Shown piece after piece: positions 34,313 through 34,424 of a stretch of 64,000 nt of DNA (positions are counted from its first letter, which is position 1; every line of letters starts with the position of its first letter). The position numbers and the translations under genes are program-made. This DNA comes from Eledone cirrhosa (Eukaryota): the NCBI GenBank assembly GCA_964016885.1, contig OZ024743.1, forward strand, positions 290,594,001-290,658,000, given 5' to 3'. The notes under the pieces are model-generated. The model ran no database searches. It was not told the origin of the DNA and worked only from the letters and a program-made list of their open reading frames with translations.

Positions 34313-34424
34313 TTTCGTTTCTGAATTTGTTTAGCAAGATTCTTTATCTGAAATCGTGTGTTGAAACCGATATTGTTATACTTTGGGAGGGTCATGTTGC
34401 CAGACCCTCCCAAAGTATAACAAT
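34313..34424 (+). mobile_element. 112-bp minimal family A insertion (inverted tail + 22-nt 3' end) in (TA)n
   Basis: 34313-34402 is the reverse complement of ~6381-6470, and 34403-34424 gaccctcccaaagtataacaat is the element 3' end. Confidence 0.92.

Follow-up and report, generated by a model that had tools for sequence, protein, structure and literature searches.

A 113-bp inverted PLE insertion in a (TA)n tract of Eledone cirrhosa, and the routes by which it may have arisen

The window, a stretch of 64,000 nucleotides from Eledone cirrhosa, carries at 34312–34424 a real, young, doubly 5'-truncated inverted insertion of a Penelope-like element (PLE) in a (TA)n tract (here the mini), which is largely explained by known PLE biology. 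Its layout has already been described for PLEs, and the insert is an ordinary two-armed remnant. As to its origin we lean towards two target-primed reverse transcriptions, one on each strand of a cut staggered by about 10 bp. The mini locus adds a readable duplication and does not by itself settle the mechanism of inverted PLE insertion; the later insertion steps are not covered by the sole in vitro study, and both self-priming and endonuclease resolution have been proposed in the literature as far as it was accessible. The parent family, family A, is young and abundant, and could offer thousands of junctions by which to tell twin priming from fold-back.

The insert, which is placed at 34312–34424 (113 bp) if the flanking duplication is taken as 10 bp, forms a palindrome of 22–24 bp that is interrupted by a spacer of 9 nt and prolonged at one side by 60 nt. 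Its parts are the following.

34312–34402, minus strand: long (tailed) arm, the last 31 nt of the pLTR and the 60-nt tail; copy of 6381–6471 at 100% identity, the end set from the duplication.
34312–34371, minus strand: tail, codons 9–28 of the ORF of the family A element; copy of 6412–6471.
34394–34402, no strand: spacer of the palindrome (9 nt), formed by the 5' part of the long arm.
34403–34424, plus strand: short tail-less arm, copy of 6390–6411; end ambiguous over 34422–34426.
34302–34311, plus strand: likely left copy of the duplication, in (TA)n, with a GT break.
34425–34434, plus strand: likely right copy of the duplication, in (TA)n, with a GT break.

Over 34313–34402 the long arm is the exact reverse complement of 6381–6470 (90/90, BLAST E 3e-43), and the short arm, 34403–34424, is identical to 6390–6411 (22/22), confirming the length of 22 nt given to it by an earlier sequence-only reading of this DNA. 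The ends correspond to 2231 and 6470/6471 of a 4.2-kb element in the same window, with which the mini was correctly said to share both endpoints. The arms lie head-to-head with their 5' ends facing each other across the spacer, and the long arm begins 9 nt earlier than the short one (6381 vs 6390), which it contains entirely. The junction at 34402/34403 is blunt, with 0 microhomology and 0 added bases, and one strand folds into a 22-bp stem with 2 more bp over one bulged base and a 4-nt loop. No empty allele was seen at the site. A palindrome lying between microsatellites might be suspected of being an artefact of assembly or library, as the exact 6381/6390 junction is absent among the 15 joints listed out of 48 from public reads, which thus lend the mini no independent support, and no reads of the window's own sample were identified. 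Against an artefact stand the family-specific ends, the asymmetry of the arms, the duplication at the flanks and another sample, whose raw reads contain a near-identical junction; we consider an artefact the least probable explanation of all.

The TA tract on the left ends in a GT break, and the right tract shows the same break at the corresponding position, from which follows a duplication of 10 bp (34302–34311 = 34425–34434) with 8–12 bp allowed. From the rate of GT breaks in the window the chance of such a GT-marked duplication is roughly 0.05%, perhaps 10 times more with 17 of 84 AT runs ending in GT. This 8–12 bp repeat, absent from the sequence-only reading, is likely the target-site duplication, and is similar in length to the 8–10 bp duplications given for PLEs of Adineta vaga in PMC3846280. 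It is readable at the mini only, the other copies in the window sitting in pure TA.

The parent is the 4.2-kb family A element, for which four features are needed here.

2231–6471, no strand: 4.2-kb family A element in (TA)n, with a tail-less main arm at 2231–5990 (minus strand) and an inverted tailed arm at 5990–6471.
2736–5990, minus strand: uninterrupted, 5'-truncated ORF of 1084 codons with a telomerase-like RT, a CX4CXXC linker, a GIY-YIG endonuclease and about 70 extra residues between RT motifs A and B.
6210–6254, plus strand: predicted minimal hammerhead ribozyme in the pLTR, with CUGANGA and GAAA cores and stems I and II; a further copy lies near 2386–2430 (minus strand), in the 3' pLTR.
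6388–6471, plus strand: ATG and first 28 codons of the ORF; the short end falls at codon 8 and the tail end at codon 28.

The main arm thus holds the open 1084-codon frame and the 3' pLTR, and the other arm is an inverted pLTR with the tail. The arms are identical at 418 of 420 positions; separate templates were considered for them, but the two differences are uninformative, the letter at 6246 being a minority one in the family. At the inverted junction (5984–5999) there is a 6-bp palindrome with a 4-nt loop, and the arms overlap by at least 2 nt. The cores and stems I and II of the predicted hammerhead were recognized by eye and by folding (fold z -1.8), and the Rfam scan left it unmatched, giving only a chance match. 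We take the predicted cut to lie at 6249/6250, about 220 nt upstream of the tail end. A stem-loop in the RNA around the short end was no better than in shuffled sequences (z 0.45 to 1.06).

The ATG at 6388 opens 28 codons that span both endpoints, and the other two frames contain stops. Between family A and an older related copy, B, 9 of 13 differences over 69 nt are in third positions (p=0.009), and 7 of 11 in the tail alone (p=0.04), with 7 silent codon changes against 2.1 expected (p=0.002). The tail peptide aligns with residues 6–26 of the homolog P0030 with a score of 71 against at most 44 elsewhere in P0030 (shuffle p=0.0006, this homolog being chosen as the best of the 18 long ones tested). 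It is the only one of the 18 with a clear N-terminal match, two being marginal and 15 having no top-ranked match there, and BLAST and phmmer comparisons with the 57 homologs had given nothing significant before this targeted N-terminal test. Of two database searches with the peptide one returned nothing at E<=10 and the other an unrelated bacterial-type repeat protein. By its codon pattern the 60-nt tail is coding sequence from the start of the ORF, and its end is therefore not an RNA terminus but must lie inside the RNA. Should one of the two ends be terminal, it is the short one, at a 3' pLTR.

The sequence-only reading had made the tail end terminally primed, that is the physical 3' end of the RNA, with the short end internal. 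PAc, a Poseidon element of Anolis carolinensis, does prime weakly off template 3' ends in vitro (PMC11167929), and a processed or prematurely ended transcript could stop at codon 28. The coding character of the tail argues against terminal priming, as do the predicted ribozyme cut some 220 nt upstream and the starts that bracket the tail in PAc, both of which are internal; the tail of Pen2a in A. vaga is alike. We therefore abandon terminal priming of the tail as highly improbable.

Three further copies in the window bear on the endpoints.

52060–52969, no strand: older related element B of the same layout, with a tail-less main arm (minus strand) carrying the endonuclease end of the ORF and a short inverted tailed arm (plus strand) from about 52861; ATG at 52897.
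32895–33105, minus strand: diverged pLTR copy, truncated at the 5' end, whose tail-less end lies in (TA)n; an inverted partner was not seen.
43186–43380, minus strand: diverged pLTR copy, likewise truncated at the 5' end, whose tail-less end comes about 3 nt earlier; an inverted partner was not seen.

Three of the five tail-less ends (2231, the mini and 32895) lie in ATAT at 6410–6413; the end of the 43188 copy comes about 3 nt before this, and that of the 52063 copy is in TATA, 6–8 nt before it. The copies at 32895, 43188 and 52063 had been said to share an internal endpoint with the mini, which is correct to within about 8 nt and not to the exact point. All five ends fall in TATA or ATAT within those 8 nt, and each is ambiguous by 2–4 nt, as its last letters also match the TA target; this hints at pairing with the target, unlike in PAc, and is a lead only. 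The homologous tail noticed earlier in copy B is present and extends over 52897–52969.

Four public runs (X1, X22, X5 and X4) were aligned to 5830–6483. Loose ends running into (AT)n at 6413 were found in 118 contigs of X1, 2,588 reads of X22 and 2 contigs of X5, with none among those listed for X4, and the short end is thus a sharp family-wide peak in public reads. For the tail end no sharp peak appears among the loose ends listed; the sequence used for the alignment had TA bases as its last letters, and the X22 reads are cut at 6459 by an AATT site. Among 24 listed pieces three pass from the tail into TA bases, and two leave the match at 6473 for other letters, which are perhaps those of the ORF; in the three contig runs the depth carries through the tail into the TA bases, the last bin keeping about half or more of the depth of the preceding one. 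Two preferred endpoints about 60 nt apart are upheld, but of the two sharp peaks expected across the family only the one at the short end was seen among the loose ends listed, beside which minor scattered ends may occur. The apparent read ends of X22 at 5911, 6307, 6344 and 6459 fall, like the read start at 6120, at AATT and GCATGC sites, which are the restriction sites of a RAD library, and were set aside as not biological; for this reason the read counts give no ratio of tailed to tail-less ends. Loose ends at 6377 and 6449 had low agreement and were likewise set aside, as likely stemming from diverged subfamilies. An opposite-strand joint 6377/6390 in X22, from another animal, has 83 reads with 2 starts and a 2-nt match, and fits a head-to-head arrangement with the 5' ends 13 nt apart, in which the tail-less arm may be the one that reaches further 5'. 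A second opposite-strand joint in X22, 6250/6428 (24 reads, 3 starts), is a single junction and fits tail-to-tail geometry only; one of its ends is at the predicted hammerhead cut (6249/6250) and the other 17 nt into the tail.

In the route that we favour by a little, the GIY-YIG endonuclease would nick both strands of the target about 10 bp apart. The 3' end of the top strand would prime at codon 28 of the ORF and be extended by about 91 nt, and that of the bottom strand would prime at codon 8, the end of the pLTR, and be extended by about 22 nt, possibly helped by pairing of ATAT with the target. Host repair would then join the two cDNA ends and fill in the duplication. The short end might lie within the RNA, as it does in PAc, or be where a 3' pLTR transcript ends, and the templates could be one RNA (twin priming) or two (dual priming). 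Each arm of the mini is antisense on the strand that bears the 3' end of its flank, as two primings require, and both ends map to codons 8 and 28, by position inside the ORF-bearing RNA. In the 4.2-kb element and in B (0.9 kb) each arm has sequence that is missing from the other; a simple fold-back therefore fails for these two, and two primings are the simplest account of them. Two reverse transcription events on opposite strands, as the sequence-only reading had proposed, are hence retained as the likeliest route on account of the duplication, the 6413 peak and these two larger copies, its terminal priming of the tail being dropped.

For the mini itself a fold-back is a lesser but serious possibility: a single cDNA from the tail end would stop after about 91 nt and copy itself over 22–24 nt, and its ATAT end would pair with the opposite (TA)n overhang. 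All of the short arm is contained in the long one, the strand forms a hairpin with the 22-bp stem and 2 bp past one bulged base, the short end is located in letters that match the target, and a duplication would form in this way also; self-priming has moreover been proposed for PLE junction palindromes in PMC3846280. The earlier exclusion of snap-back thus holds for a long arm copied from the short one and not for a short arm copied from the long one, and the mini, then called unusually clean, is of the three examples in the family the weakest and least decisive. The 5' ends also count against two primings, being 9 nt apart in the mini and 13 nt apart in the joint 6377/6390, one of them again at 6390; independent truncation does not predict 5' ends as close as these, but fold-back does, and they nearly coincide in three of five inverted junctions (the mini, the read joint 6377/6390 and a palindrome at 28.3 kb). 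On the other side the mini junction has no exact match, one template base must be skipped and an earlier TATA match (6402–6405) was bypassed, and the same short end is found family-wide and in copies that cannot be fold-backs (2231 and 52063), indicating that a priming route exists.

Long inverted repeats are prone to deletion, and a longer inverted element like the 4.2-kb copy might have lost its middle after insertion, in which case the ends and the duplication would survive. The joint 6377/6390, in which no more than 4 nt on one arm are different, could represent an allele related to the mini. There is no direct repeat at the breakpoint, however, the 100% identity to family A suggests that there was little time for such a loss, and extreme 5' truncation is normal for PLEs in the published accounts as far as available, all of which makes central deletion an improbable origin of the mini.

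A truncated copy that is inverted and bears a tail at only one end is the standard PLE structure in the legend to Fig. 2 of PMC8557442 and in PMC8969392. In Pen2a of A. vaga (PMC3846280, also PMC8557442 Fig. 2) there is likewise an inverted, 5'-truncated, head-to-head copy with a tail at one end and a palindrome at the junction; its pLTR carries 12 codons and the tail extends to codon 22, compared with 8 and 28 in family A. The tail measures 30–40 nt in the canonical PLE insertions of the sources at hand and about 60 nt in family A, and the mini further departs from these insertions in that the whole insert is 113 bp and that the copies in the window have no direct upstream pLTR. The PAc protein, a predicted dimer, nicks and extends both strands in vitro, and two internal start sites bracket its tail (PMC11167929). 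The two elements share a pair of starts that flank the tail within the 5' portion of the ORF, an AT-rich target and an upstream hammerhead, which in family A is a prediction, but the PAc starts are at least about 111 nt into the ORF, compared with about nt 24 and 84 in family A, and are unlike the cut DNA, whereas the short site of family A matches the target over 4 nt. Internal initiation, which had earlier been called known for PLEs together with 3' extensions of the pLTR, is published for PAc with its two internal sites. Twin and dual priming of L1 (PMC2837659) resemble the mini in that both nicks prime and two inverted fragments lie inside a duplication, with little or no microhomology at the junction; they differ in that L1 primes at the poly(A) and a variable internal site and gives non-overlapping arms, whereas the sites of family A are fixed and the arms copy the same repeat. 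The term twin priming was not found for PLEs in the literature searched, the available text of PMC8557442 having 0 uses of "twin", and the accessible parts of PMC12910113, PMC13282606, PMC2678813 and bioRxiv 10.64898/2026.07.22.740005 added nothing further on tails.

The closest of the 57 matches to the ORF is an Octopus vulgaris protein with 65% identity over 68% of the query. A motif at residue 8 of the ORF is found at 184–219 in six of the longest homologs; about 180 N-terminal residues are therefore absent, and the 2736–5990 protein, which the sequence-only reading had suggested for in vitro TPRT, would as a 5'-truncated product be a poor assay reagent. Pfam missed the RT and GIY-YIG domains in the full ORF, and both were found on pieces of it, RVT_1 with an E of 6e-5, under the curated cut-off, and GIY-YIG with 23.4 bits vs a cut-off of 22.6. 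The RT has the motifs DKSG, YGLRKDHK and YVDD, its predicted model has a pLDDT of 90, and the top 14 structural matches are all telomerases (Z 13.3–14.6, rmsd 3.3–5.5, 272–389 aligned residues). The C-terminal GIY-YIG endonuclease, preceded by the CX4CXXC linker, has the CCHH motif with two Cys between VVY and YIG as well as the His residues. A long Asn/Thr/His-rich stretch of low complexity at 5400–5830, through which the frame stays open, is reminiscent of the N-rich inserts in A. vaga PLEs. P0055, an Octopus vulgaris "dynein regulatory complex subunit 6-like" protein, contains a piece of the RT (77% identity over 14% of the query), which is either an exonized fragment or a gene-model error.

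The telomerase-like RT, the GIY-YIG domain with CCHH in the same ORF and the duplication in an AT-rich target are those by which endonuclease-containing PLEs are recognized, and pLTR repeats with an inverted 5'-truncated copy and a tail at one end occur in three cases in the window. The Penelope/Poseidon clade was rejected as it is defined without a CX2-5CxxC zinc-finger linker in the sources at hand and family A has CX4CXXC, the Hydra clade as it lacks CCHH and has a DKT motif where family A has CCHH and DKS, and the Naiad/Chlamys clade as its endonuclease is N-terminal to the RT and that of family A C-terminal. The Nematis and Neptune clades share with family A the C-terminal GIY-YIG with CCHH, the CX2-5CxxC linker and (TA)n targets in PMC8557442, where the short linker spacing of Nematis in Fig. 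S2, judged by eye, is also similar. The spacing between RT motifs A and B is 131 aa in the ORF of the window and 127–133 aa in 46 of the 57 matches, 11 not fitting the patterns. Counted by eye in Fig. S1 of PMC8557442 it is about 61–63 aa in Penelope and Nematis and about 118 in human telomerase. Family A thereby departs from the Nematis and Neptune clades, for which no insertion between the two motifs is expected. It is filed as a PLE, and not as Nematis or Neptune.

The extra residues, about 70 (3990–4390, minus strand), are modelled with high confidence and occupy the place that the IFD has in telomerase. No clade with a C-terminal endonuclease in the overview of PMC8557442 fits this, the canonical PLEs of that type being described there as without IFD. 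Of six family A motifs compared with the available supplement of PMC8557442 five were absent and the sixth was a chance match. No paper on this RT insertion was found in the literature searched; the lineage or minimal inserts may already have been described in Arkhipova 2006, in the 2004 study of the Penelope endonuclease or in Repbase. The insertion may mark an undescribed PLE lineage, which would bear on the claim that the IFD is common to telomerase and only N-terminal-endonuclease PLEs (and some Coprina). A wider proposal, which we regard as rather doubtful, is that family A represents an undescribed C-terminal-endonuclease lineage with a telomerase-sized insertion at the IFD position, whose normal route would be dual priming by an enzyme pair from two fixed sites in the first 28 codons onto the two overhangs of a 10-bp staggered cut in (TA)n. 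If both parts were true, the minimal product of this route would be the 113-bp insert, which would also define a compact RNA for assays.

Several other inverted structures are present in the window. The palindrome at 28.3 kb (28273–28676) is perfect, with 202-nt arms and 0 spacer, and lies in (TA)n with an extension of about 33 nt on the left arm only (28240–28676); by its look it is an inverted insert with a tail, from another family. Its flanks have a direct repeat of 66–68 nt in common (28138–28205 and 28676–28741). Beside TA tracts are a palindrome with 67-nt arms and a 3-nt spacer (43806–43942) and a degenerate inverted repeat with 207-nt arms (44011–44455). At 9036–14237 inverted repeats of about 1.7 kb, 98–99% identical, surround the ORFs 10828–11970 and 11952–12533, neither of which has a Pfam match, and this is probably a young DNA transposon. 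Short inverted-repeat elements at 7301–7357, 23453–23496 and near 6500–6610 have ends in common and are likely a MITE family.
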